The position numbers were made by a program, and so were the translations under genes. A model generated the notes under the pieces. That model saw only the letters and a list, made by a program, of their open reading frames with translations, was not told the origin of the DNA and ran no database searches. From Clostridia bacterium (GTDB lineage Bacteria; Bacillota; Clostridia; UBA1212; DUPL01): a stretch of DNA of 64,000 nt. The stretch is taken from assembly GCA_050951325.1 (NCBI GenBank), contig JBMNIW010000003.1:224001-288000 (forward strand), in the 5' to 3' direction. Shown piece after piece: positions 35,575 to 48,816 of the stretch. Each line of letters begins with the position of its first letter. Positions within the stretch are counted from its first letter, which is position 1.

Positions 35575-36729
35575 AGTTTCACATTATATCTGAAAGCGGC
35601 GTCTTGATCACGCGCTTGCTGAAATTGCCAGCGGAAGAAGAGCGATAGATGTGGTGCTTGAATACGGTTTTGATACCTATGCTGGGTTTTATAGGGCATT
35701 TGTAAAAATGTATGGTTGTTCTCCAAAAAAGTATCTAAGCATTTATCAAAACACATACCAATTAAACCGGAGGTGGCAAAATTGTATACTGAAAGAGAAT
35801 TACGAAAAGTTTTGGAGAATTGGGATATCGATAAAGATCTGCCAATTAGCGATATCTTTATCATGGATGGGGCAAAAGTATCGGGAAATGTCTGGACAGT
35901 TGGTAAAGAATATATCCTCAAAGCTGGCGACCGGGAAAAGATATTTAAAAACCTTAATATTTCTAAAGCACTTCATAAACAGGGTTTTACTTCTTCCCTT
36001 CCAATACCGACAAAAACCGGCTGTGAGTATTTGGAAAACAATGAAATTTTCATTCTGACCCAAGTATTAAAAGGTAATCCACTTCCCAAGTCCGATAGAT
36101 TTGGAGATAATTGCATGAAGTTTGGCGAAAAATACGGTAAAAGCATTGCACGACTTCATAAAGCTTTGAAGGCTATACAAAAAGACATTTTGCCTGATGA
36201 AGTGAACCTGTATAAAAATGTAACGGTATGGGCACTGCCGAATGTTAAACAACAGAAAATGCAGTGGGGTATGGAATTTGACGAGTACTTTTTTGACGAC
36301 TATATTAAAAACTTTGGTAAACTTTATGATAGACTGCCAAAACAGCTTATTCATGGTGACCCCAATCCCAGCAATATCCTGTTTGAAGATGATGAGATAA
36401 GTGGATTTATTGACTTTGACTTAAGTGAAGTAAATGTGCGCTTGTGGGATGTCTGCTACTGTGCAACCGGAATTTTGTCTGAAGCTAGCGACGAGGCTTA
36501 TGAAAAATGGTTAGATATACTCTGCGGTATTCTGCATGGTTATGACCTTGAGGGTAAACTGACTCAGGAAGAAAAACAGGCTGTGTTTTATATAATCTGC
36601 TCCATCCAGATGATTTGCATTGCATACTTTGAAAGCTATGATAAATTCAGAGAACTTGCAAATACAAATCGCAAAATGCTGCAGTTTATTATTCGAAATA
36701 AAGAACACTTTGATAATATTTTGAATTAG
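35575..36729 (+). pseudogene. AraC-HTH plus phosphotransferase fusion, 5'-truncated with nonsense codon and frameshift
   Basis: YI*KRRL..EYGFDTYAGFYRAFVKMYGCSPKKY (AraC end), frameshift near 35750, then APH motifs IHGDPNPSN and FIDFD. Confidence 0.8.
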
Positions 36730-37737: not shown

Positions 37738-39009
37738 TTGGATATGGAAAAGAAACTGACAAATAAAACGCTTCTTTTCATACTGCTGGCAGTTCCTGCT
37801 CTTTTTCTTTTGACAGGTTTGGTGCGTGCAGTAGTAAACAATAAAATGCCAGCTTTGGCAGAGGACCTTACACGTATTGTTTTATCGAGAGCAAATCTTT
37901 TCACTGACTTTATAGAACTCGGAGGAGTTGAAGCCGCCCTGCTAAATGTTGCAGTAGTAGCTTTGTTCAATCTACTTCTCATATACATATACAAACTGGA
38001 GATTAACGGATTTACCATCGCTGCATATTTTACAGTCATAGGATTTGCTTTCTTTGGAAAGAATCTCTACAACATCTTCTCCATTTATATAGGAGGACAC
38101 TTGTACGCCAAACTAAAAAGGATTCCTTTGAAAAATGTCATTATTCCCCTGATGTTTGCAACAGCTTTGGCACCTGTGATAAGTGAAATCAGCTTTGCAA
38201 GCATAATCCCCTCTCCCCTAAGTTCCATAGTAGCCCTTCTTGTAGGCATAATCATCGGCTTAATTATTATTCCTGTATCCTCACATATGCTTAGATTCCA
38301 CGACGGATACAACCTGTACAATATAGGTTTTACTGCAGGAATAATTGGCACATTACTTACAGCATTTCTAAGAAGCTTTGGCGCATCCGTGGAGCCGGTA
38401 AGCATTATCTCCGATTCAAATCATCCAATCATAATATGGCTTTTATTTACCATATTTACTTCAATGCTAGCTCTCGCTCTTTTAATTAACATCAAAGCGT
38501 TCAAGGAATACAAGAAAATACTTTCAAAGGGAGGAAGGCTCGTTACAGACTTTACAAACTCTGCCGGCTATGCTGCTACTTTTTTGAACATGTCGGTTAT
38601 GGGACTATTGAGCCTGGTTTATGTTCTTGCAATAGGCGGCGTTGTAAATGGTCCTGTTCTTGCTGGAATATTTACAATAGCAGGATTTTCCGCATTTGGA
38701 AAGCATCTTAAAAACTGCATCCCAGTCATGTCCGGAACAATTCTGTCCGCATTGATTTTTGGCTACGAGCTTTCAGAAACAGCCATTATTGTATCAGTCC
38801 TTTTTTCCACCACACTTGCACCAATTGCAGGCAAATTCGGTCTATTATGTGGCCTTCTTGCAGGAGTTACACACATGGCGGTCGTCACAAATGTGGGATT
38901 TATCCATGGTGGAGTGAATCTTTACAACAACGGTTTTTCCGGAGGAATTGTTGCAAGCGTTCTTGTGCCTATTATTGAGACTTTCAGAAAGGGTGACAAG
39001 GATGATTAA
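37738..39009 (+). CDS. DUF1576 multi-pass membrane protein
   Basis: Duplicated motifs GFAFFGKN/GFSAFGKH, HDGYNLYNIGF/HGGVNLYNNGF, TALAP/TTLAP. Confidence 0.85.
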   Translation: MDMEKKLTNKTLLFILLAVPALFLLTGLVRAVVNNKMPALAEDLTRIVLSRANLFTDFIELGGVEAALLNVAVVALFNLLLIYIYKLEINGFTIAAYFTVIGFAFFGKNLYNIFSIYIGGHLYAKLKRIPLKNVIIPLMFATALAPVISEISFASIIPSPLSSIVALLVGIIIGLIIIPVSSHMLRFHDGYNLYNIGFTAGIIGTLLTAFLRSFGASVEPVSIISDSNHPIIIWLLFTIFTSMLALALLINIKAFKEYKKILSKGGRLVTDFTNSAGYAATFLNMSVMGLLSLVYVLAIGGVVNGPVLAGIFTIAGFSAFGKHLKNCIPVMSGTILSALIFGYELSETAIIVSVLFSTTLAPIAGKFGLLCGLLAGVTHMAVVTNVGFIHGGVNLYNNGFSGGIVASVLVPIIETFRKGDKDD

Positions 39010-39346
39010 CGAGCCTAATAAGATCGCAATGATTTTAAGTGGAATTGTTTCGGTGCTCCTGGAGCGAGGACATGGAAATATCGACGTTAGTATTAAAAGA
39101 GATGATAAGAGCACTACCATAATTATAATTCAGCGTCAAGCCACATATACAGATACCTTTATAGAATGGTTAAAAAAAGGCCTTAAACCGAGACGCAAGG
39201 GTGTTGTAGAGGAATATTACTGGAGGCTTGCGGATATGAATTTTGAAAGCGATAATCTTAATCTTGTTGGTGCATTAATCGATGAGTCAGAGGTACAACT
39301 AAAGGACAATGTGTTGAGAATAAAAGTGGCGAGATATATAGGTTAA
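39002..39346 (+). CDS. Small hypothetical protein coupled to the DUF1576 gene
   Basis: Overlapping start; EEYYWRL and LVGALID motifs. Confidence 0.7.
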   Translation: MINEPNKIAMILSGIVSVLLERGHGNIDVSIKRDDKSTTIIIIQRQATYTDTFIEWLKKGLKPRRKGVVEEYYWRLADMNFESDNLNLVGALIDESEVQLKDNVLRIKVARYIG

Positions 39347-39488
39347 AACCTCTATTTGGCACTGCAAGAATATTTGAATTTGCCATTCCCACTATTTTTG
39401 ATATAATTTATGCGGCCCAAAAGTTTATGTGCTGTGTTCATCATAAACATTTTGTTCCACATTACATTATATTGACGCTGTCACAAAG

Positions 39489-40544
39489 GTGGTTTTCATG
39501 TCTAATTCAAGCACATATCAAAAATGGGCAGATGTTGTAAAAGGAATAGGAATTCTTACAGTAGTAATAGGTCACTTCGACGAAATGCCCATAAACCATT
39601 ATATCTACTGGTTCCATATGCCATTGTTTTTTATTATCAGTGGCTACTTTTTTAAACCGGTCGAAAACTGGGAGTAATTCCCGACATTATTAAAAAAATA
39701 TACACTCCGCTTATTAGTCCCCTATTTTTCCTTTCTAATATCAATAACCGCTATTAGGTATGCATTTCATATTTTGCAAAAAAGAATGACTCTGCAGTGG
39801 CTTTCTGAAGATATTGTACGCCTTCTTCTAGGGGGCAGATTTATTGGTGGTTTTTATGCTCCCATCTGGTTCGTTACAACTTTGTTCTTTACATATATTG
39901 CTTTTAATCTAATTGTATTACTTCTTAAAAGTGATGCCAACAGGCTGCTATTAATAGGAATACTATACATTGTTGCGCATATAGAATCATGGCTTAACCA
40001 AAGCCATAACATAATAGTGCCATTAAATCTTGATGTCACCTTGATATCACTCTCATATTTTGCCTTTGGTTACTATGCCAAGAGAATATTAAGTAAAATC
40101 TCCAAACCTGTTTTTTTAACAAGCAGCCTGATAACTATAGCTATTTATACAGGTATCTTTTTTGACAAATACAACTATACTTTTGGAATGAAGGGTCTTA
40201 ACTACCATCATATTTTGCTAGACTTTACTGTTCCAACAGCAATTTCTGTTACTTTTATAGGGTTGTCTCAAATGATTTCAAAATATAAAGCAACTGATAT
40301 ATTAGCATATTTGGGAAAAAACTCCTTGGCAATAATGTTCATACATATGTTGCCAACTGTTTTCCTGCAACCGATTTTAGGATATGGAGTAATCACCCAT
40401 ACAATAATAGGCATTGTAGTTCCATTGCTTGCGACTCACTTGATTTTAAATCGTTTCCGACTAACCAGGTTTCTATTCTTAGGCAAGAGGTCACCAGCTC
40501 CGTCCAAAGTAAATTTAGAAACTACTGAGGCGGCACAAGAATAA
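39489..40544 (+). pseudogene. Acyltransferase-3 (OafA-like) interrupted by an in-frame TAA at 39675-39677
   Basis: DVVKGIGILTVVIGH..FHMPLFFIISGY, stop, then the same frame continues KKYTLRLLVPYF..WFV..GKNSLAIMFIH. Confidence 0.85.
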
Positions 40545-40557
40545 AAGCAATATATAA

Positions 40558-40594
40558 AAGAAGACCGAAATTTTTAGTTGAATCGGTCTTCTTC
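40558..40594. terminator. Bidirectional terminator between convergent genes
   Basis: AAGAAGACCGA..TCGGTCTTCTT hairpin. Confidence 0.7.
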
Positions 40595-40601
40595 TGTTAT
40601 T

Positions 40602-41393
40602 TTACTTTATATACATTTTCGCCAATACATAGGATACAAAGCTTTTAGGGAGCAATCTCTCAAGAAATACAAATACCTTATACCTGTGTCCTCCGATATA
40701 AAAAGGTTTTAGTTTCCGTTTTGTAGCTACTTTATAAATCAACCACCCCATATATTCAGGCGACATGCCATTTTCCTCATCACGCTCCATGCCGGAAATG
40801 GTATTGGATATGATTCCGCCATACACATCGTCTCCTGTTTCATTTTTTCTTCTTGATGAAGTAAAATCGGTTTTAACATCTCCGGGCATTATTGCACAAA
40901 CCTGAATATTCCCAAATTTCCTTACTTCATTTCTTAGCGACATGGTTAGAGCATTAACTGCTGATTTGGAAGCTGAGTAAAAGGCTTGGAATGGGAGCGG
41001 AAAAGCAGCTGCCACAGAGCTGACATTTATAATTTTTCCTCCCTTCTTGCGCATTATGCCCAGTGCACATTTTATGCAGCGCACCATGCCAAAAAAGTTT
41101 ACGTCAAACTGGTACTTAGCTTCCGACATTTCAGTAAACTCGACAGCACCGGATATACCTGAACCGGCATTGTTAACAAGGATGTCAACTGCACCAGTTT
41201 CAGCAACAATTTTATCAAAAGCCGCATTGACGGATTCTTCGTTCGTAAGGTCAGTGCTTATGTAATTGACACCTGCAAGGTCTCCAGCCTTTCTGCTAAG
41301 ACCGTATACATTATACCCACCCTCCAGAAAAAACTTTGCTGCATAATAGCCAATGCCACTGGAGGCTCCAGTAATCACAACCGTCTTCTTCAT
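40602..41393 (-). CDS. SDR oxidoreductase, putative 3-ketodihydrosphingosine reductase
   Basis: TGASSGIG, NNAG, YSASK, PGDVKTDFT..R, ERDEENG; ATG directly follows the SPT stop codon. Confidence 0.75.
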   Translation of the reverse strand: MKKTVVITGASSGIGYYAAKFFLEGGYNVYGLSRKAGDLAGVNYISTDLTNEESVNAAFDKIVAETGAVDILVNNAGSGISGAVEFTEMSEAKYQFDVNFFGMVRCIKCALGIMRKKGGKIINVSSVAAAFPLPFQAFYSASKSAVNALTMSLRNEVRKFGNIQVCAIMPGDVKTDFTSSRRKNETGDDVYGGIISNTISGMERDEENGMSPEYMGWLIYKVATKRKLKPFYIGGHRYKVFVFLERLLPKSFVSYVLAKMYIK

Positions 41394-42593
41394 TTAACAA
41401 TCACAACCATTCTTAACACTCTTGTTAATAACCGAGTGTATAATATCCATTGCTTCGTCCAGCAGTTCATATGTATGAGTTGCCATCAAGCTGATTCTAA
41501 GCAGGCAGTTGCCATCAGGAGCTGCCGGCGGAAGAACAGGATTTAAATAGACACCTGCATCGTAAATTTCCTTTGCTCTTATGAGTGTTGTCTCAAAATC
41601 ATATGTATAGAATGGGATAATAGGTGTTGTATATACGGATTCTCTGACCGGAATTCCCCTTTCCTTAAGCCCATTTCTCATGTATAGCGCCAAATCCGAC
41701 AATCTAGAAACCAGCTCGGGATTCTTCTTTATAACACGTAATGCTGCCAAAGCCGCCGCACATGATGCGGGTGGAATTGAGGCTGAGAAGATAAAAGGTC
41801 TTGAGTTGTGTTTAATATACTCAATAACATACTTGTCCGATGCCACAAAGCCACCGAGACTAGCCAGAGATTTGCTAAATGTACTCATTATTATATCCGT
41901 CTCCTCTGTCAGCCCAAAGTGTTCCGCCGTTCCCCTGCCACCATTTCCAAGAACACCAAATCCATGGGCGTCATCCACCATAGTGACTGCATTATACTTC
42001 CTGGCCAACTCAACAATTTTGGGAAGATTACAAATATCTCCACTCATGCTGAACACACCATCTGTGATAATAATCTTGCCGGCATCCAGAGGAAGCTTTG
42101 CAAGGCACTGCTCCAAATCCTCCATATCGTCATGTTTGTAGCGGACGGTTTTGCCAAAACTCAACCTGCACCCGTCGTATATGCTTGCATGATTCTCCCT
42201 GTCACTAATAATATAGTCGTGTCGCCCTACAATGGCACTAATAATGCCGAGATTTGTCTGGAAGCCCGACGGAAATGTGCATGCAGCTTCCTTGCCAACG
42301 AATTCAGCCAACTCTTCTTCAAGCTGTAAATGCATGTCCAAGGTACCATTTAAAAAACGAGATCCGGAGCAACCTGTACCGTATTTTTCAATAGCTTTAA
42401 TAGCCGCTTTCATAACTTCAGGGTGAGTTGTGAGTCCAAGATAGTTGTTTGATCCCAGCATAATTCTGCGCTTGCCTTCCATTATTACCTCCACATCCTG
42501 CCGGGATTCCAAGTGGTGGAAATATGGATAAATTCCTTTTTCTTTTACTTCGTCAACTTTAGTGAAACTTGCGCATTTCTGATAAATTCCCAT
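41394..42593 (-). CDS. spt: Serine palmitoyltransferase-like alpha-oxoamine synthase
   Basis: GIYPYF, GSNNYLGL, GSRFLNGTLD, NHASI, DDAHG, TFSKSL (PLP lysine), RPFIFSAS; GGAGG RBS before ATG at 42593. Confidence 0.8.
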   Translation of the reverse strand: MGIYQKCASFTKVDEVKEKGIYPYFHHLESRQDVEVIMEGKRRIMLGSNNYLGLTTHPEVMKAAIKAIEKYGTGCSGSRFLNGTLDMHLQLEEELAEFVGKEAACTFPSGFQTNLGIISAIVGRHDYIISDRENHASIYDGCRLSFGKTVRYKHDDMEDLEQCLAKLPLDAGKIIITDGVFSMSGDICNLPKIVELARKYNAVTMVDDAHGFGVLGNGGRGTAEHFGLTEETDIIMSTFSKSLASLGGFVASDKYVIEYIKHNSRPFIFSASIPPASCAAALAALRVIKKNPELVSRLSDLALYMRNGLKERGIPVRESVYTTPIIPFYTYDFETTLIRAKEIYDAGVYLNPVLPPAAPDGNCLLRISLMATHTYELLDEAMDIIHSVINKSVKNGCDC

Positions 42594-42702
42594 GTACACA
42601 AACCTCCAAAGATAGTAAAATCTACAATACTTGTGCTATTATACCATACGAGGTTTGAGATGTTAACAATTATTTTAATATAATGTTCACAACCTTCTGA
42701 TA

Positions 42703-43026
42703 CTATTTGCGAGTTTGCTCATCTAGCCATTTCAAATACGCAAGACTTCCCAACTCCACATCTACAAGAAGAATTTCTGGTGTTTCATAGGGGTGTATTT
42801 CCTTAAGTTTCTTTTCTAATTCAGGATATAACTCCTTTCTTGTCTTTAACAAAACCAATACTTCATCTTCACGACAGAGTTCACCTTTCCATACATAATG
42901 ACTCTTTATCTTTATTTCCTGTACACATGCCGCCAACTTACATTCCAGTATCTCGTCTATTACTGGTTTTACCTGCTGCTCATTAGCAAATGTAGTCAAA
43001 ACAATTCCATATTCGCTCACAATCAT
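42703..43026 (-). CDS. cutA: Divalent-cation tolerance protein CutA
   Basis: LAACV, SHYVWKG, HPYETPEI, YLKW. Confidence 0.92.
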   Translation of the reverse strand: MIVSEYGIVLTTFANEQQVKPVIDEILECKLAACVQEIKIKSHYVWKGELCREDEVLVLLKTRKELYPELEKKLKEIHPYETPEILLVDVELGSLAYLKWLDEQTRK

Positions 43027-43111
43027 TCCTCCTCACAATAATTAAACACATATTATGATACAACAAAAATATAGAAATAAAAACCTGCATAATCCTATCA
43101 ATATAGTATAA

Positions 43112-43297
43112 TTTATCATCAACTCAAAAAGAGATGAAGCCAAGACATTATTGGAAGACTCTTTTGCTCGTCAGGCTGCAGGAACATTCGACAAGGAATA
43201 TCTGAAGGAGACAATGCCGAAATATTACGCATTGTTAAAGCCTGAAACAATCGAAGAAGTCAGACAGGCAATGGAGCATTTTGCTTCCACGTTATAG
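43112..43297 (+). pseudogene. Start-less 3' fragment of a small helical hypothetical protein
   Basis: Open frame ..KRDEAKTLLEDSFARQAAGTFDKEYL..LLKPETIEEVRQAMEHF..* with an upstream in-frame stop and no start or RBS. Confidence 0.5.
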
Positions 43298-43358
43298 AAG
43301 AAAACAAGCGTAGGTACATCCGCTTTTTTCATTGTACCTTCCGCTATGTAAATGGCAT

Positions 43359-44285
43359 TCATAACTGGATTATCTGCCTCCAGTTTTGATTAGGATCTGA
43401 AGATGAATATTTCGCATCCCCTGCAGGATACAACAGCACATAATATTTACCGTTGGTATACCAAATGGAGCCTTTGTGAGGGGGATTCTTCCAGACAACA
43501 GGTCTTGCAATCCAGTCAACATCTGCATCTGTCCAAACTCTGGAGGTATCCACCTTTACATATCCCGCGTTATGTTTTTGATGTGCTTCCTCCAGTGTCG
43601 GGTCGCTTTTGCAAAAGATTTGCTTAAATAAGTTGATTCGGCAATAATATAAACTCCAGTATGATCCCTGTACAATGTTCCTGGAGTAAGGAGCAGACCT
43701 CCATTCAAGACTGGCTGCTTCATGTTTTGTAGCTTGCCATGAACCAGACAAATAAATCTCCGCTCCTGTCTCATCATCCTTTAACACCAAATCTCCTGCT
43801 TCATATCCATACTCCGGCTCTTCCCCTTCCTCATCCTTTCCAAGAAAGACAAGAGGTCTGGCTGTCAGGCTGTAGCTGTACTTTTCTTCTCCTTCTCTAA
43901 ACACATGCACCTTAATATCCACAAAGGGATTGTTGTCTGCATGCTCAAACTCCAAACCAATTTTAGCAGAACCATAATATGCAGAATCAAAAACCAATCC
44001 ATTGGATGTAACAAGATATCCATCCTGCATAGTATACTTAACACCATCCAATACGATGGATCTTCCTTCATCAGTTACTTCAAAATGAGTGGATAGTCTT
44101 ACCCTGCCAGCCAAATAGTCCGCAATATTCACGGCAATAGACTGGTCTTCCGCAACAGAGACAGTCCTGTTGTATATTCTCAACACCGGACTTACTATCG
44201 CCACAACACATGCAATAAATATGGTCAACAACGTAAGTGTAACCATTACTTCTACAAGAGTATAACCTCTGTTATTCCGTAGCAT
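43359..44285 (-). CDS. Prepilin-type N-methylation protein (PilW/PulJ-like)
   Basis: NRG/YTLVEVMV class III signal. Confidence 0.85.
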   Translation of the reverse strand: MLRNNRGYTLVEVMVTLTLLTIFIACVVAIVSPVLRIYNRTVSVAEDQSIAVNIADYLAGRVRLSTHFEVTDEGRSIVLDGVKYTMQDGYLVTSNGLVFDSAYYGSAKIGLEFEHADNNPFVDIKVHVFREGEEKYSYSLTARPLVFLGKDEEGEEPEYGYEAGDLVLKDDETGAEIYLSGSWQATKHEAASLEWRSAPYSRNIVQGSYWSLYYCRINLFKQIFCKSDPTLEEAHQKHNAGYVKVDTSRVWTDADVDWIARPVVWKNPPHKGSIWYTNGKYYVLLYPAGDAKYSSSDPNQNWRQIIQL

Positions 44286-44577
44286 AAACTTTCAACCCTC
44301 CACTCTGTTTAACAACGACGGGTATTTCATATTCCTTATCTATTTCCCCATGTATGCTGAAAGTAAATGTAAGATTGTCAACATCAGTCAAACTCTGACC
44401 AGTCTCAATATCCGCAACACTCTGGCTTGTCTCCTCATTTCTTTCATGAGCTCTTTCTGCAATATTAAGTGAAGTCTGCACCATTACCGTGACCGACGCA
44501 AGCAGTACTGCAAACAAAACCAGACTTACAATTACCTCTACCAATGTTTCGCCTTTACTGTTCCTAATGTACTTCAT
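44272..44577 (-). CDS. Prepilin-type minor pilin (PilV-like)
   Basis: SKG/ETLVEVIV signal. Confidence 0.8.
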   Translation of the reverse strand: MKYIRNSKGETLVEVIVSLVLFAVLLASVTVMVQTSLNIAERAHERNEETSQSVADIETGQSLTDVDNLTFTFSIHGEIDKEYEIPVVVKQSGGLKVYATE

Positions 44578-45277
44578 TTTGATGCACCCTTACAAATATT
44601 CTGTCAAATTCCCGCCAATCAATATGCTTGGAATGCAAAGGTGATAGGTTCAAATCTCTAATACTGCTAACAGGATTTGTTCTCCTTTCACACTCGGCCT
44701 TTCTTTCGCCTTTGGCACTAAAGGTATATTCCAAAGCAAGCTTGTATTCCTCTCCATTATGCCTTGTGGTAAATGAAATGGCAACTTTCTCAATTTCCAA
44801 GTCGTACCTCTCTAAAACATCATACATTCTACCACTCTTATGCTGGTAACTCTGAAACTTAATCAATTGAATACCACTTAGCTTGATTTGTACATTGTCA
44901 TATTCAACATCATCATAAGGGGTACTGTTTTTCAGTAGAGTAATATTGCAATCCAACACAATTTCCGCTGGAACATCAACAAGCTCTTCTGTGTTATTCT
45001 CTCCGTTATTATGAGTCGCTCCAATTAAACCTATATAATTAATTATCTCATACCCAAAACCTTCGTCACCCACAATCTCCTTGCTGACAACTTCAGCTGC
45101 GGATTTCGCGTAGTAGTAGACTTGTTTGTTGGTATGATTCTTAATGGATGTGCTCGACAGCATGCTTGCTGCTGTAAGCACGCTGGCCCCTGCTATCAGA
45201 AACACCATCGATATAATCACCACAAATATTATTGAAGCACCTGAATTGTTGCGTATATACTTCATTGTCTTACTCAC
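44564..45277 (-). CDS. PilX-like minor pilin
   Basis: NSG/ASIIFVV (no Glu at +5), QVYYYAKSA motif. Confidence 0.7.
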   Translation of the reverse strand: MSKTMKYIRNNSGASIIFVVIISMVFLIAGASVLTAASMLSSTSIKNHTNKQVYYYAKSAAEVVSKEIVGDEGFGYEIINYIGLIGATHNNGENNTEELVDVPAEIVLDCNITLLKNSTPYDDVEYDNVQIKLSGIQLIKFQSYQHKSGRMYDVLERYDLEIEKVAISFTTRHNGEEYKLALEYTFSAKGERKAECERRTNPVSSIRDLNLSPLHSKHIDWREFDRIFVRVHQNEVH

Positions 45278-45845
45278 TCTCTCTCCGGGATTCCGGTCGT
45301 TCTTGCTCCATAGAATCCTATTTTCTTTTCTTCCCTTGCTTCCTTTGTCCTGTTTTCAACATCAGTAAAGTTTCCATCCCCATATCCAAAGGCATCTACC
45401 TTGTCAGAGTAAAAAACGGACAAAACCTTTCCCGTAGCAATATTGTATTCAATAAGGATGGCGTTGTTAAGAACACTTGTGTCCATTATGTATCCATCAA
45501 GGATCCTGCTTACATTCTCCTTGCTGGTAACGTACACAATGTTTCCTGTATTGTAGTATTTATCTCATCATCATAGAAATTCTCATCATCAGTTATCAGG
45601 TTTTCAAGATTGACATCTCCATCATAAGGCAAATCATTAAGAAGTCCGGCGATACTTTTTTGGGTAAGACTGTTGGTTGCGGCAACATAAAGAGTTCTGG
45701 CGACACTATTTCTGTTCCTGCTCTCAGAGTATTTATAGTATTGCACTACTGAAGGAACGGCTATCGCTGCTATTATCGCTATGATGGTAATTACAACAAT
45801 TATCTCAACCAGAGTAAACCCCTTTTTCATGATGTTCATCGCCAA
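45274..45845 (-). pseudogene. Prepilin-like gene split by a 1-bp frameshift near 45560
   Basis: KKG/FTLVEIIVV signal; ..DDEI frame switches to KYYNTGNIVYVTSKE.. of the 45274-45537 ORF. Confidence 0.7.
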
Positions 45846-45958: not shown

Positions 45959-46474
45959 ATGAAATTCAGTTTCAAGAGGAATACCAAAAAATTTGCCGAA
46001 GTAGTTTCTAAAAGAAACCCTGGAGCCTATGCGGATATTTTAGGCGACAGAGAACACCAGAGCATAGTGGGACGGGTAGATTTCTATCAGGTAAGAAACG
46101 GTGTTCTGCTGGTTGCGGAAATACATGGTTTGCCAACAAAACCAGACATTTGCGCCAGCAAGGTTTTTGGATTCCATATACATGAGGGTGAAGAATGTTC
46201 AGGCGACAAGGAAGATCCGTTTAGAAACGTAGGAATGCACTACAACCCTGACAGATGCACCCATCCGCAGCATGCAGGAGACCTTCCGCCACTTTTTGAG
46301 AACAACGGATACGCCTGGATGGCATTTTACACAAACAGATTCAGATTGTTTGAGGTTATTGGGCGTACAATAATTGTGCATCAACTGCCCGATGACTTCA
46401 CAACCTCTCCCTCTGGAAGTGCTGGCGCAAAAATAGCATGTGGAGAGATAAAAAGGTATATCCCACGCAAGTAA
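45959..46474 (+). CDS. Cu/Zn superoxide dismutase family protein
   Basis: GFHIH, HYNP..HPQHAGDL, IIVH..DD, ACG. Confidence 0.9.
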   Translation: MKFSFKRNTKKFAEVVSKRNPGAYADILGDREHQSIVGRVDFYQVRNGVLLVAEIHGLPTKPDICASKVFGFHIHEGEECSGDKEDPFRNVGMHYNPDRCTHPQHAGDLPPLFENNGYAWMAFYTNRFRLFEVIGRTIIVHQLPDDFTTSPSGSAGAKIACGEIKRYIPRK

Positions 46475-46539: not shown

Positions 46540-48816
46540 TTATTGCCTTCCAGTTCTATAGACTTCAAACTCCGCCAGTTGGAAAAGATAGCCGTCAGGC
46601 GACGATTCCACCTGAGTCATCTCTTTTGAAACCACCCTTACATATCGTGCATCAACTGCATCAAACTTTAAAACTCTTGCAATGGTTGAAACAGCACCGG
46701 ATTCCTTTAGTTCATACACCTCTGTCCAGTCTTTTTCATCCAACGAAACCTCAACAACAAGATGTTTTGGGAAGTAATAGCCCGTATCCTGCCTTGGATA
46801 CAATACCACGGTATCAATGTTAAACTTCTCACCCAGGTCAATCAGTACCCACTCTTCAGCATAAGGGTCGGTCATGTGACGCCCTGTCTGTGTGGTCCAG
46901 CCTGAATGCGTATTGGTTGCCTTAATCATGCCATCATTTATGTGTTTTCTCATCCATCCCCACTGGGGTGCTTCCAAAGATGATGACGTCTTAACCCTCT
47001 TGTTAAGCGCTACATTATACTCTGGTATAAGGGTCTTGTCTTTTTCCCATACCCTCTGATATTTTGGCAGTGTACCATCATCATTGTAAATCTCAATTTC
47101 ACATATCTCGGCAATATATATATCCGAAACCTTTACAGCCTCATCAATACGTATTTTCACATATCTGGCCTTTACAGTATCAAATGTATAACTCAGCTCT
47201 TTTCTCTTTTCCCAGGTATCAGACAAGATTTCTTTGTAATCTTTTCCGTTGGTTGAGTACAGTATCGTAAACTTCCTTGGAAAGTACTGTCCGTTTCTTT
47301 CCTCGTCTCCGCTGGTAACGGGATACAGGTCCACCCTGTTAATATCAACAGCCCTCTTAAGATCCACCATTATATAAATCTCTTCGTCTCCTGCTCCTTC
47401 ATATCTCCATCCTCTGGAACGGTCGGTGGACACCCTGTTTCCGTCGACCGCCTTGTAATTAAAGTATCCATCGTATCCGCGGGAGAAGTTGGAGTAAATT
47501 GGTTTATCCAAAGCCAGATTCACATCCGCATCCTGATATTCTTTATGTAAAGTCACACCTTCTGAAAGTCTATACAGCCTGAAACCGCCTGCAAGAAGCT
47601 CACACTGGAAAATTCCATCTGTTATGGTTACCTCCTCTTCCTCCCCACTGGTTACATCCATCAAACTTTCAACACCGTTGAGCTTTAGAGCAAGGGTTGC
47701 ATCCTTGTTAAAATTCTTGTTAACAATCATAAGATAGTTTCTCTTTGTCTTTCTATCCACCATTAAGGAAACAAGAAAATCCTTTTTGTCAGTAGCTTCC
47801 ACATGCCAGCCAGGTTCAAGCATTTTCGTTGAAGCATCCTGTCTTCCATTATGATATATCTCAACGGCATCAAGCTTTCCTAGAATGCTGCTCACCTTCT
47901 TTATATCCCTGTTTATCTGCGCCACACCATCAAAGAGATCCGTTTTCTCGCCTTCTGGTGAAATAATGGCAAGAGTGAAATCCTCACCTCTTTCCACAGG
48001 TGTTATCCAGGTAAAATACTTGAGATTTTTGTAACCATATGCAAGCGCTGCAGATGTATGGTACCTAATCTCATTTGCATTCGTCCTTCTGAACTTGTCA
48101 AGTACACCAACAGATTGGATGTAAAGGGCGGTATCCACATTGTACTTAAGACCAACTTCCCTAACAAAGTTCATATTTCCAAACATCTGAGGAATGGAGC
48201 CAGGCTGCAAGGCAAAGGGATACTGGTCGTAGGAAAGGTACCTTACATTTTCCCTACCCGCAGAGCTTATCCAGTCTTCCGCATGACCTCTTGGGTCAGG
48301 CAGCGCTCCCATAGGAAGCATGTTTAACTGCGATATACATCCCGGGTGCTCTTCCGCCATGATTTTTGCAACTCTTCCAAACGGATTTGCATTATGTGGC
48401 TCGTCAAGAAGCAAATATCCCACTACGCATTCATTGTCCTTGTACCTTCTTACAAGCTCCCTAATTTCTTTATCCGATTTCTTTTCAATGCCAATCCAGT
48501 CTTTGTCTGCAATTGTTATCTTCAAACCCTTTTCATTACACAATCTTAAAGTTTCCCTGATTGTATCCTCGTCTGTAAAAATCGGATCGGTTCCCCACTC
48601 GAGCAAATCAATACCAGCCTCAACCAAATAATCGAACTGCTCTTCAGTGGTAAAACCTTTCATCGGAGGCCAAAAAACAGAAATGACTATTTCTCCTGCG
48701 CCATAACCTTTAACCTCTTCCTCCTGATCACCATCCGTGGGTTCCTTTTTACCGCATGAAAAAAGACCCAAACACAAAAAAACCACCACGACCAAAAGCA
48801 TAATCCGTTTTTGCAT
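46540..48816 (-). CDS. Lipoprotein with putative clan GH-A glycosidase barrel and two F5/8 type C (CBM32) domains
   Basis: Lipobox LFSC, LLDEP, SYDQYPF; two NxAL..DG..IDL..LYP..ARYV..E repeats. Confidence 0.75.
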   Translation of the reverse strand: MQKRIMLLVVVVFLCLGLFSCGKKEPTDGDQEEEVKGYGAGEIVISVFWPPMKGFTTEEQFDYLVEAGIDLLEWGTDPIFTDEDTIRETLRLCNEKGLKITIADKDWIGIEKKSDKEIRELVRRYKDNECVVGYLLLDEPHNANPFGRVAKIMAEEHPGCISQLNMLPMGALPDPRGHAEDWISSAGRENVRYLSYDQYPFALQPGSIPQMFGNMNFVREVGLKYNVDTALYIQSVGVLDKFRRTNANEIRYHTSAALAYGYKNLKYFTWITPVERGEDFTLAIISPEGEKTDLFDGVAQINRDIKKVSSILGKLDAVEIYHNGRQDASTKMLEPGWHVEATDKKDFLVSLMVDRKTKRNYLMIVNKNFNKDATLALKLNGVESLMDVTSGEEEEVTITDGIFQCELLAGGFRLYRLSEGVTLHKEYQDADVNLALDKPIYSNFSRGYDGYFNYKAVDGNRVSTDRSRGWRYEGAGDEEIYIMVDLKRAVDINRVDLYPVTSGDEERNGQYFPRKFTILYSTNGKDYKEILSDTWEKRKELSYTFDTVKARYVKIRIDEAVKVSDIYIAEICEIEIYNDDGTLPKYQRVWEKDKTLIPEYNVALNKRVKTSSSLEAPQWGWMRKHINDGMIKATNTHSGWTTQTGRHMTDPYAEEWVLIDLGEKFNIDTVVLYPRQDTGYYFPKHLVVEVSLDEKDWTEVYELKESGAVSTIARVLKFDAVDARYVRVVSKEMTQVESSPDGYLFQLAEFEVYRTGRQ

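Follow-up and report, generated by a model that had tools for sequence, protein, structure and literature searches.

Bacterial sphingolipids are placed mainly in the Bacteroidota and some Proteobacteria by the parts of the literature consulted here, and synthesis of sphingoid bases is rarely credited to Gram-positive bacteria. Sphingolipids are also recorded for Acholeplasma axanthum, for which no confirmation was found in the literature searched. The closest described systems are the serine palmitoyltransferase (SPT) of Sphingobacterium multivorum (SmSPT; PDB 3A2B, 8GUH) together with the other CFB-type SPTs, the 3-ketosphinganine reductase KdsR (BT_0972; NF049977) of Bacteroides thetaiotaomicron, and the Spt-bCerS-CerR system of Caulobacter. 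The 64,000 nt of a Clostridia bacterium analysed here (contig JBMNIW010000003.1, positions 224,001 to 288,000; the whole stretch is called the window) belong to a genome of 3.08 Mb (12 contigs, 96% complete) and carry, on the minus strand, adjoining genes for a pyridoxal 5′-phosphate (PLP)-dependent alpha-oxoamine synthase and a short-chain dehydrogenase/reductase (SDR). Judged by the families and active sites of their products, the two genes probably give a monoderm clostridial host a Bacteroidota-type route to sphingoid bases, and it seems likely that synthase and SDR together would convert serine and a long-chain acyl thioester to 3-ketosphinganine and then to sphinganine.

The window synthase resembles the CFB-type SPTs in being a soluble protein of about 400 amino acids that aligns with SmSPT from end to end, shares 16 of 17 mapped active-site positions and falls in the same clade. 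It is unlike them in belonging to a separate sister clade (support 99) composed of Clostridia, Izemoplasmatales/Acholeplasmataceae and a part of the Bacteroidales, in being encoded in an operon with its own reductase, an arrangement seen at 1 of 29 Bacteroidota loci, and in its host, a Spo0A-positive, LpxC-negative monoderm. The SDR is like KdsR in being a classical SDR of about 265 amino acids with a TGxxxGxG motif, an S-Y-K triad and an NADPH-type Arg, but it scores 224.6 bits against that family, the cut-off of which is 400 bits, and members of its clade occur in genomes without an SPT. In B. thetaiotaomicron the locus-tag numbers of BT_0870 and BT_0972 differ by about 100 (consulted parts of PMC10865984 and PMC9278070), whereas the genes are adjacent here. 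An SPT start and a keto-reduction step are shared with the Caulobacter system; the window locus, in contrast, is without genes for an acyl carrier protein (ACP), an acyl-ACP synthetase or an acyltransferase, and the synthase scores 323 bits with the alpha-proteobacterial SPT model. A further likeness is to human 17beta-HSD1 (PDB 1FDT), an NADP-dependent reductase of lipophilic ketones (TMq 0.90, C-terminal helices included), although identity is 24% and the resemblance to the SDR is one of fold and lid only, not of function.

The synthase belongs to Pfam family Aminotran_1_2 (PF00155, 188.5 bits). Its best NCBIfam model is NF047600 (SPT, CFB type) with 550.7 bits, and the next is a BioF/Kbl-related model with 400.6, followed by BioF (389.4), beta-proteobacterial SPT (387.3), Kbl (384.8), alpha-proteobacterial SPT (323.2), ALAS (261.3) and CqsA (197.3). 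Among solved structures the best match is SmSPT (441.7 bits, residues 5–388), and lower scores are given by a Sphingomonas SPT (287), a BioF/Kbl enzyme (275), Kbl (240–256), the cysteate acyltransferase structures 28EH and 7U7H (246–248) and a CqsA-type autoinducer synthase (108); by these scores the synthase falls outside the cysteate fatty acyltransferases (CFATs). The equivalog cut-off of NF047600 is 640 bits, and falling short of it says little because just 1 of 101 sampled Bacteroidota genomes reaches that score, their best matches lying mostly at 440–520 bits. Synthase homologues from the same type of gene pair (the cassette) in ten other organisms score 476–582 bits with this model. The NCBIfam cut-offs are too strict here to count against membership.

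Seventeen active-site positions of SmSPT were mapped by alignment; most are named in the consulted parts of PMC10196870, and R82 lies between two named residues. Sixteen are the same in the synthase (N49, G77, S78, R79, F80, L81, N82, H135, S182, D207, A209, H210, T238, S240, K241 and F269 in its own numbering), among them the PLP residues K241, H135, D207 and H210, which align with SmSPT K244, H138, D210 and H213. The sole exception is M271 of SmSPT, replaced by I268; M271 meets the substrate with its main-chain atoms, and all 28 typical Bacteroidota SPTs compared have Ile at the corresponding position. All the residues in contact with, or close around, the serine hydroxyl and carboxylate (N52, G80, S81, H138, S243 and K244, SmSPT numbering) are identical in the synthase, and invariant in 47/47 Firmicutes and 16/16 Bacteroidales cassette proteins. 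Kbl-type proteins depart from SmSPT at G80, S81, L84, N85, A212 and S243, so that G-S-R-F-L-N of the synthase stands against S-V-R-F-I-C of Kbl. The motifs GIYPYF, GSRFLNGTLD, NHASI, TFSKSL and RPFIFSAS, listed in a preliminary description of the locus, are all found in the translation. No other alpha-oxoamine synthase was matched in the host genome. Searches of that genome with E. coli queries gave no convincing orthologue of BioB (46 bits), BioC (no match) or Tdh, the best Tdh-like match being 28% identical and at another locus. The view of the preliminary description, that the enzyme is SPT-like and not Kbl or BioF, is borne out by the NF047600 lead, the SPT-specific residues, the position in the SPT clade described below and the lack of BioB, BioC and Tdh.

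The SDR is a member of Pfam adh_short (155.7 bits), and its translation contains TGASSGIG, R34, NNAG, the triad S126/Y139/K143, PGDVKTDFTSSR and ERDEENGMSP, the last two being the segments to which the preliminary description had drawn attention. TGASSGIG, R34, N99, S126, Y139, K143, PGDxKTxFTxxR and MExDExxG are invariant or nearly so in 28 cassette SDRs. An Arg after strand 2 of classical SDRs is a marker of NADP(H) preference. The best NCBIfam model is KdsR, aligned over positions 3–267 of 267, and the SDR has the highest KdsR score in the host genome, where the next SDR reaches 121 bits. The best KdsR scores of five typical SPT-bearing Bacteroidota genomes are 124–205 bits, none reaching the cut-off and all being lower than that of the window SDR. 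An AlphaFold model computed from a 28-sequence alignment has a pLDDT of 94.2 and a pTM of 0.92. The top TM-scores of the model are to human 17beta-HSD1 with NADP, at TMq up to 0.90, while an uncharacterised SDR from Streptomyces (3M1A) ranks first by Foldseek E-value. The modelled fold is compatible with NADPH-dependent reduction of a lipophilic ketone but is not specific to it.

The two genes form a real and well-delimited operon (Table 1). On the minus strand the junction reads TGT TAA ATG AAG, the stop codon of the synthase abutting the start of the SDR gene with no spacer, as had been described previously. The start given previously for the synthase, the in-frame ATG at 42593, is preceded at 9 nt by GGAGG and is therefore likelier than the GTG at 42599. 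The terminator reported after the pair is present 3′ of the SDR stop, and 0 of 200 shuffled sequences fold as well; the 14 nt loop exceeds the limit of 8 nt used in the terminator consensus scan, explaining why the hairpin was not listed there. No Rfam element or riboswitch was matched in 39000–44000.

The operon is present in RNA libraries of four studies, which is not proof of transcription. Six metatranscriptome runs, from six studies, contain 62–98% of its sampled words, and biogas fermenters and bioreactor sludge are the sources of the RNA runs in which the DNA is identical; 14 DNA runs with the sequence were flagged as possible sources and were not used as support. Contigs of four RNA libraries, examined over 39000–44000, bridge the junction between synthase and SDR (X15, 41037–43159; X16, 41058–43159; X17, 40772–41929; X20, 41132–41494). 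Those of X15 and X16 also include the upstream gene cutA, so the three genes may share a transcript. These contigs cross the promoter-like site from cutA, and transcription may therefore also begin further upstream. That both contigs stop at 43159 hints weakly that a transcript has one of its ends there, ahead of cutA. Close to this position are two weak promoter-like sites, 43174..43147 and 43127..43100. RNA-contig cover is 0 in 39501–39667 and 40002–40168 in the four runs, and below 40670 in X17 and X20, an absence that is not evidential.

Linkage was surveyed at 80 related loci with a synthase homologue 50–89% identical, from Clostridia, Izemoplasmatales, Acholeplasmataceae, other Bacilli, Paludibacteraceae and other Bacteroidales, and the SDR was sought beside the synthase by tblastn. 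An SDR homologue adjoins the synthase at 66 of them, across three lineages: at 57 a full open reading frame (ORF) for it immediately follows the synthase gene on that gene's strand, at a distance of −130 to +120 nt, at six it is divergent and upstream, and at three it is cut by the end of the locus. The 14 loci without an adjacent SDR include one (L034) that ends too early to judge. No third gene is conserved across lineages; when the 1950 ORFs of the 80 loci were clustered, nothing recurred across lineages apart from the synthase, the SDR and some antisense artefacts. Lineage-specific neighbours considered as pathway genes were rejected, not being lipid enzymes: malate/lactate dehydrogenase, LD-carboxypeptidase, 2-hydroxyacid dehydrogenase, a PfkB kinase with an indigoidine-synthase-A-like protein, and TetR with an ABC/FtsX transporter. 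In the Izemoplasmatales (L023–L036), TetR and the ABC/FtsX-type transporter precede the cassette and a D-2-hydroxyacid dehydrogenase follows it; the operon may have been extended in this lineage. Homologues of 12 flanking genes of the window were found at none of the 80 loci, even in relatives with 89% identity, nor was a CutA homologue found beside any of the 80 cassettes, so cutA is not part of the conserved cassette but is possibly co-transcribed with it. Among the best SPT loci of the Bacteroidota sample (L102–L130), L124 is the single one with an SDR alongside. In three of the genomes behind the Paludibacteraceae/Bacteroidales loci (L044–L083, L124), no synthase is a better candidate for SPT than that of the cassette (491–500 bits), the other synthase matches scoring 280–330 bits.

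A synthase tree of 102 rows was rooted on E. coli BioF, leaving out every second Bacteroidales cassette locus (16 of 31) and the duplicates L090–L094. It separates a 94-row SPT clade (SH-aLRT 96) from Kbl, BioF and their relatives, and the window synthase groups with SPT, away from E. coli Kbl and BioF. Inside the SPT clade, a 64-row cassette clade (99) contains all of the Firmicutes sequences and is sister to the typical Bacteroidota SPTs (99), with which identity is 48–54%. In the unconstrained tree the Bacteroidales cassette sequences (100) nest beside Clostridia, which suggests exchange between phyla, in either direction; a single Firmicutes clade, defined after the tree had been seen, was not rejected by the AU test (p = 0.156). 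The SDR tree (68 rows, with 13 of 25 Bacteroidales rows left out) groups all 51 cassette SDRs together in a single clade (100), the subdivisions of which match those seen for the synthase. This co-evolution of the two proteins means that the pair has been inherited and exchanged as a unit.

The host is the only genome of its GTDB family, and within its order the synthase is found in 1 of 45 genomes, namely its own. Among 398 genomes scored in an even sample of the class Clostridia, a synthase is matched in 57 at E ≤ 1e-100, with at least 57% identity in 51 of them including the host (G000), and an SDR is matched in 59 at E ≤ 1e-35; as the genomes are related, such counts are not independent. 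With 51 of 398 genomes positive, the synthase gene is no rarity in the class. The two tables were combined by hand for the 50 synthase-positive genomes besides the host. The SDR is present somewhere in 40 of these, being adjacent in 28 (19 divergent, five downstream, four upstream on the same strand) and elsewhere, on another contig or far away, in 12. Two synthase homologues, G104:C33:1004-2188 and G393:C41:70390-71565, each have one in-frame TGA, which could be due to a pseudogene, a sequencing error or recoding.

Genes for later steps were sought in the host genome. The eukaryotic CerS domain PF03798 has no match. PF13444 also has none, and this family is silent in the Caulobacter control too, making the result uninformative on bCerS. 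NF047601 and NF047602 were considered as ceramide-synthase families and rejected, both being MscS channel families. Two DAGK_cat kinases were likewise discarded as a clue to a lipid pathway, since the family is present in 13 of 14 control genomes and is uninformative.

On the reading favoured here, the synthase would be a homodimeric PLP enzyme that holds L-serine as an external aldimine on Lys241 and joins it to a long-chain acyl thioester (acyl-CoA or acyl-ACP) with loss of CO2, giving 3-ketodihydrosphingosine. The SDR, predicted to be translationally coupled to the synthase and to have at its C-terminus a helical lid resembling those of reductases of steroids and retinoids, would then reduce the 3-keto group with NADPH to form sphinganine. 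The base may be kept free, N-acylated or provided with a head group.

Several observations weigh against this reading, the main one, directed at a strict equation of this SDR with a 3-ketosphinganine reductase, being that SDRs of this type are not confined to genomes with an SPT. A cassette-type SDR occurs in 18 of 347 Clostridia genomes without a synthase of at least 57% identity; two of the 18 have a synthase-like gene of 50–53% identity, and two (G030, G031) are in the order of the host. Four such orphan SDRs (G030, G031, G299 and G058) are 47–48% identical to the window SDR and come from genomes in which no SPT-like gene was found. Three of the four (G030, G031 and G299) nest inside the cassette SDR clade. 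KdsR is the best family for those of G031 and G299 (225 and 254 bits), and the genes around these two code for a copper ATPase, DUF2975, LigT, LeuRS, a transglutaminase-like protein and unknowns, with no lipid genes among them. Conversely, 10 of the 50 synthase-positive genomes have no such SDR at E ≤ 1e-35. The preliminary description likened the SDR to BT_0972, and this stands in so far as KdsR is its best family and the SDR is the top match of the genome; the link is nevertheless weak, the score being below the equivalog cut-off and 21 bits above that of the generic PRK06179. The shortfall of the synthase against NF047600 was counted on the same side. Neither a ceramide synthase nor an ACP or acyl-ACP synthetase is found among the neighbours of the locus, the lack of adjacent bio, tdh and ACP genes having been reported correctly before. 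Contigs from RNA libraries can include DNA, and neither strand nor a single transcript is provable from them. Finally, homology does not fix the amino-acid substrate, because Ala and Gly too are used by SPTs, if inefficiently (PMC10196870, consulted in part).

This latitude bears on the possibility that the synthase uses Ala, Gly or Thr, or a short or unusual acyl group, and that the SDR reduces the amino-ketone so formed; the end product would then be an amino-alcohol serving as a diffusible signal, or else a sphingoid base of the 1-deoxy or nor type. The separation of the cassette clade from the typical Bacteroidota SPTs would agree with this, as would the lack of downstream ceramide genes near the locus and the existence of cassette-type SDRs without a synthase. 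However, the serine-site residues are identical to those of SmSPT and invariant throughout the Firmicutes and Bacteroidales cassette proteins, and the scores with CqsA-type synthases (197 bits by NCBIfam, 108 bits by PDB) speak against a signal, so that we regard other substrates as unlikely. It is also rather improbable that the steps run in the order proposed for Caulobacter (PMC11087976 and PMC11324152, in the parts consulted), with 3-ketosphinganine N-acylated first, by some other enzyme, and the SDR then acting as a ceramide reductase and not as KdsR. A KdsR match under the cut-off is compatible with that order, and a free and an N-acylated 3-keto substrate are indistinguishable by sequence; but the best family of the SDR is the Bacteroides-type KdsR, an acyltransferase is part of the cassette at 0 of 80 loci, and it is 3-ketosphinganine in its free form that BT_0972 reduces in E. 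coli (PMC9278070, consulted in part).

In the parts consulted of PMC11211663 and PMC13692747, an SDR acts after an SPT-like synthase in the sulfonolipid as well as the sphingolipid route, and the pair could on that account be a CFAT and a 3-ketocapnine reductase of a capnine pathway. This is very improbable, as the solved cysteate acyltransferases give 246–248 bits against 442 for SPT, the synthase aligns end to end with SmSPT with near-complete identity of the active site, and CFATs are a separate clade about 30% identical to SPTs in the consulted parts of PMC13692747. A housekeeping role, as Kbl (glycine C-acetyltransferase) or as BioF in biotin synthesis, might be supposed from the synthase being the only alpha-oxoamine synthase of the genome and from the public annotation of close homologues as '8-amino-7-oxononanoate synthase'. 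It is scarcely credible given that the Kbl and BioF models score 150–165 bits under SPT, that the tree sets the synthase apart from both E. coli enzymes, that the Kbl residues S-V-R-F-I-C are absent, and that orthologues of BioB, BioC and Tdh are missing from the genome.

A broader proposal is made more tentatively, and we think it possible but doubtful. Clostridia and wall-less Bacilli (Izemoplasmatales and Acholeplasmataceae) may share an old, self-contained cassette of spt and reductase, sister to the Bacteroidota SPTs, with which monoderms without an outer membrane or known ceramide genes would make sphingoid bases, leaving them free or completing them with undescribed enzymes. Movement of the cassette between lineages, which is part of this proposal, is suggested because it occurs in 1 of 45 genomes of the order, because its flanks differ even at 89% identity and because the Bacteroidales copies nest among Clostridia. 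If sphinganine synthesis by the pair is correct, about one in eight sampled Clostridia species (51/398 genomes) would be able to make sphingoid bases, and relatives of Acholeplasma and Izemoplasma would do likewise. This would change which organisms of gut, rumen and digesters count as sources of sphingolipids and to which taxa sphingoid lipids in anaerobic habitats are attributed, and it would challenge the view of bacterial sphingolipids as mainly an outer-membrane feature.

No paper describing the cassette was found in a literature search for SPT in Clostridia, Firmicutes, Oscillospiraceae or Gram-positive bacteria (supplementary tables lay outside the search), in keeping with the previous statement that sphingolipids are not a recognised trait of Clostridia. 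In a term search, the main text of PMC11334938 has no mention of Firmicutes, Bacillota or Clostridia. The parts consulted of PMC11211663 give reductase homologues, at low homology, in 12–14% of Firmicutes genomes, and those of the preprint 10.1101/2025.09.11.675017 report SPT within its data only in E. coli and B. thetaiotaomicron.

The host, a spore-former of biogas reactors, had been described as a Gram-positive anaerobe, a fair description since Spo0A is present (250 bits, cut-off 200) and LpxC was not found in the genome. The nearest cassette homologues are in metagenome-assembled genomes named Clostridiales or Acutalibacteraceae. Candidate carriers with names of their own are Peloplasma aerotolerans M4Ah (L049), 'Candidatus Clostridium radicumherbarum' WILCCON 0202 (L051) and Oscillospiraceae bacterium WX1. 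The flanks of the operon are ordinary chromosome, with genes for RuvB, prolyl-tRNA synthetase, pyruvate phosphate dikinase, pilin-like proteins, a Cu/Zn superoxide dismutase and CutA, and the nearer neighbours are CutA, pilin-like genes, a split Acyl_transf_3 gene, DUF1576 and an APH-family kinase.

Table 1. Features of the synthase–SDR operon and its upstream context gene (positions in the window).
Feature	Position	Strand	Remarks
SPT-type PLP-dependent alpha-oxoamine synthase, 399 aa	41394..42593	−	401 aa from GTG at 42599
Classical NADPH-type SDR, 263 aa, predicted 3-ketosphinganine reductase	40602..41393	−	
Shine-Dalgarno GGAGG	42603..42607	−	9 nt ahead of ATG 42593
Promoter-like TTAACA-17-TATAAT with TG extension	42638..42666	−	11/12 matches, consensus match only
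Intrinsic terminator, 13-bp hairpin then U-rich tract	40556..40595	−	−19.7 kcal/mol, z = −6.3
cutA (CutA1 family), context gene upstream, same strand	42703..43026	−	PF03091, 109 bits

The membrane acyltransferase (Acyl_transf_3; 39489–40544, plus strand) is convergent with the operon and split in two ORFs, a 62-aa N-terminal one (39489–39677) and one of 256 aa (39774–40544) that covers profile positions 113–320 of 326. The X15 and X16 contigs diverge from the window sequence just before 39686, indicating that the junction in this gene is strain-variable or rearranged. An APH-family phosphotransferase (35716–36729) and a DUF1576 multi-pass membrane protein (37738–39009) are encoded on the plus strand downstream of the operon, and homologues of these were found beside the cassette at 0 of 80 loci. 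Directly upstream of cutA, 43359–45845 on the minus strand holds four or five small genes, two of them with the prepilin motif N_methyl, and looks like a minor-pilin cluster of a type IV pilus or pseudopilus. Further upstream, a 758-aa protein (46540–48816, minus strand) has a large N-terminal part with no Pfam match, two C-terminal F5/8 type C (galactose-binding-like) domains and, by eye, a lipoprotein-like signal. The Cu/Zn superoxide dismutase (Sod_Cu, 85 bits) is encoded at 45959–46474 on the plus strand, in an organism from anaerobic digesters.

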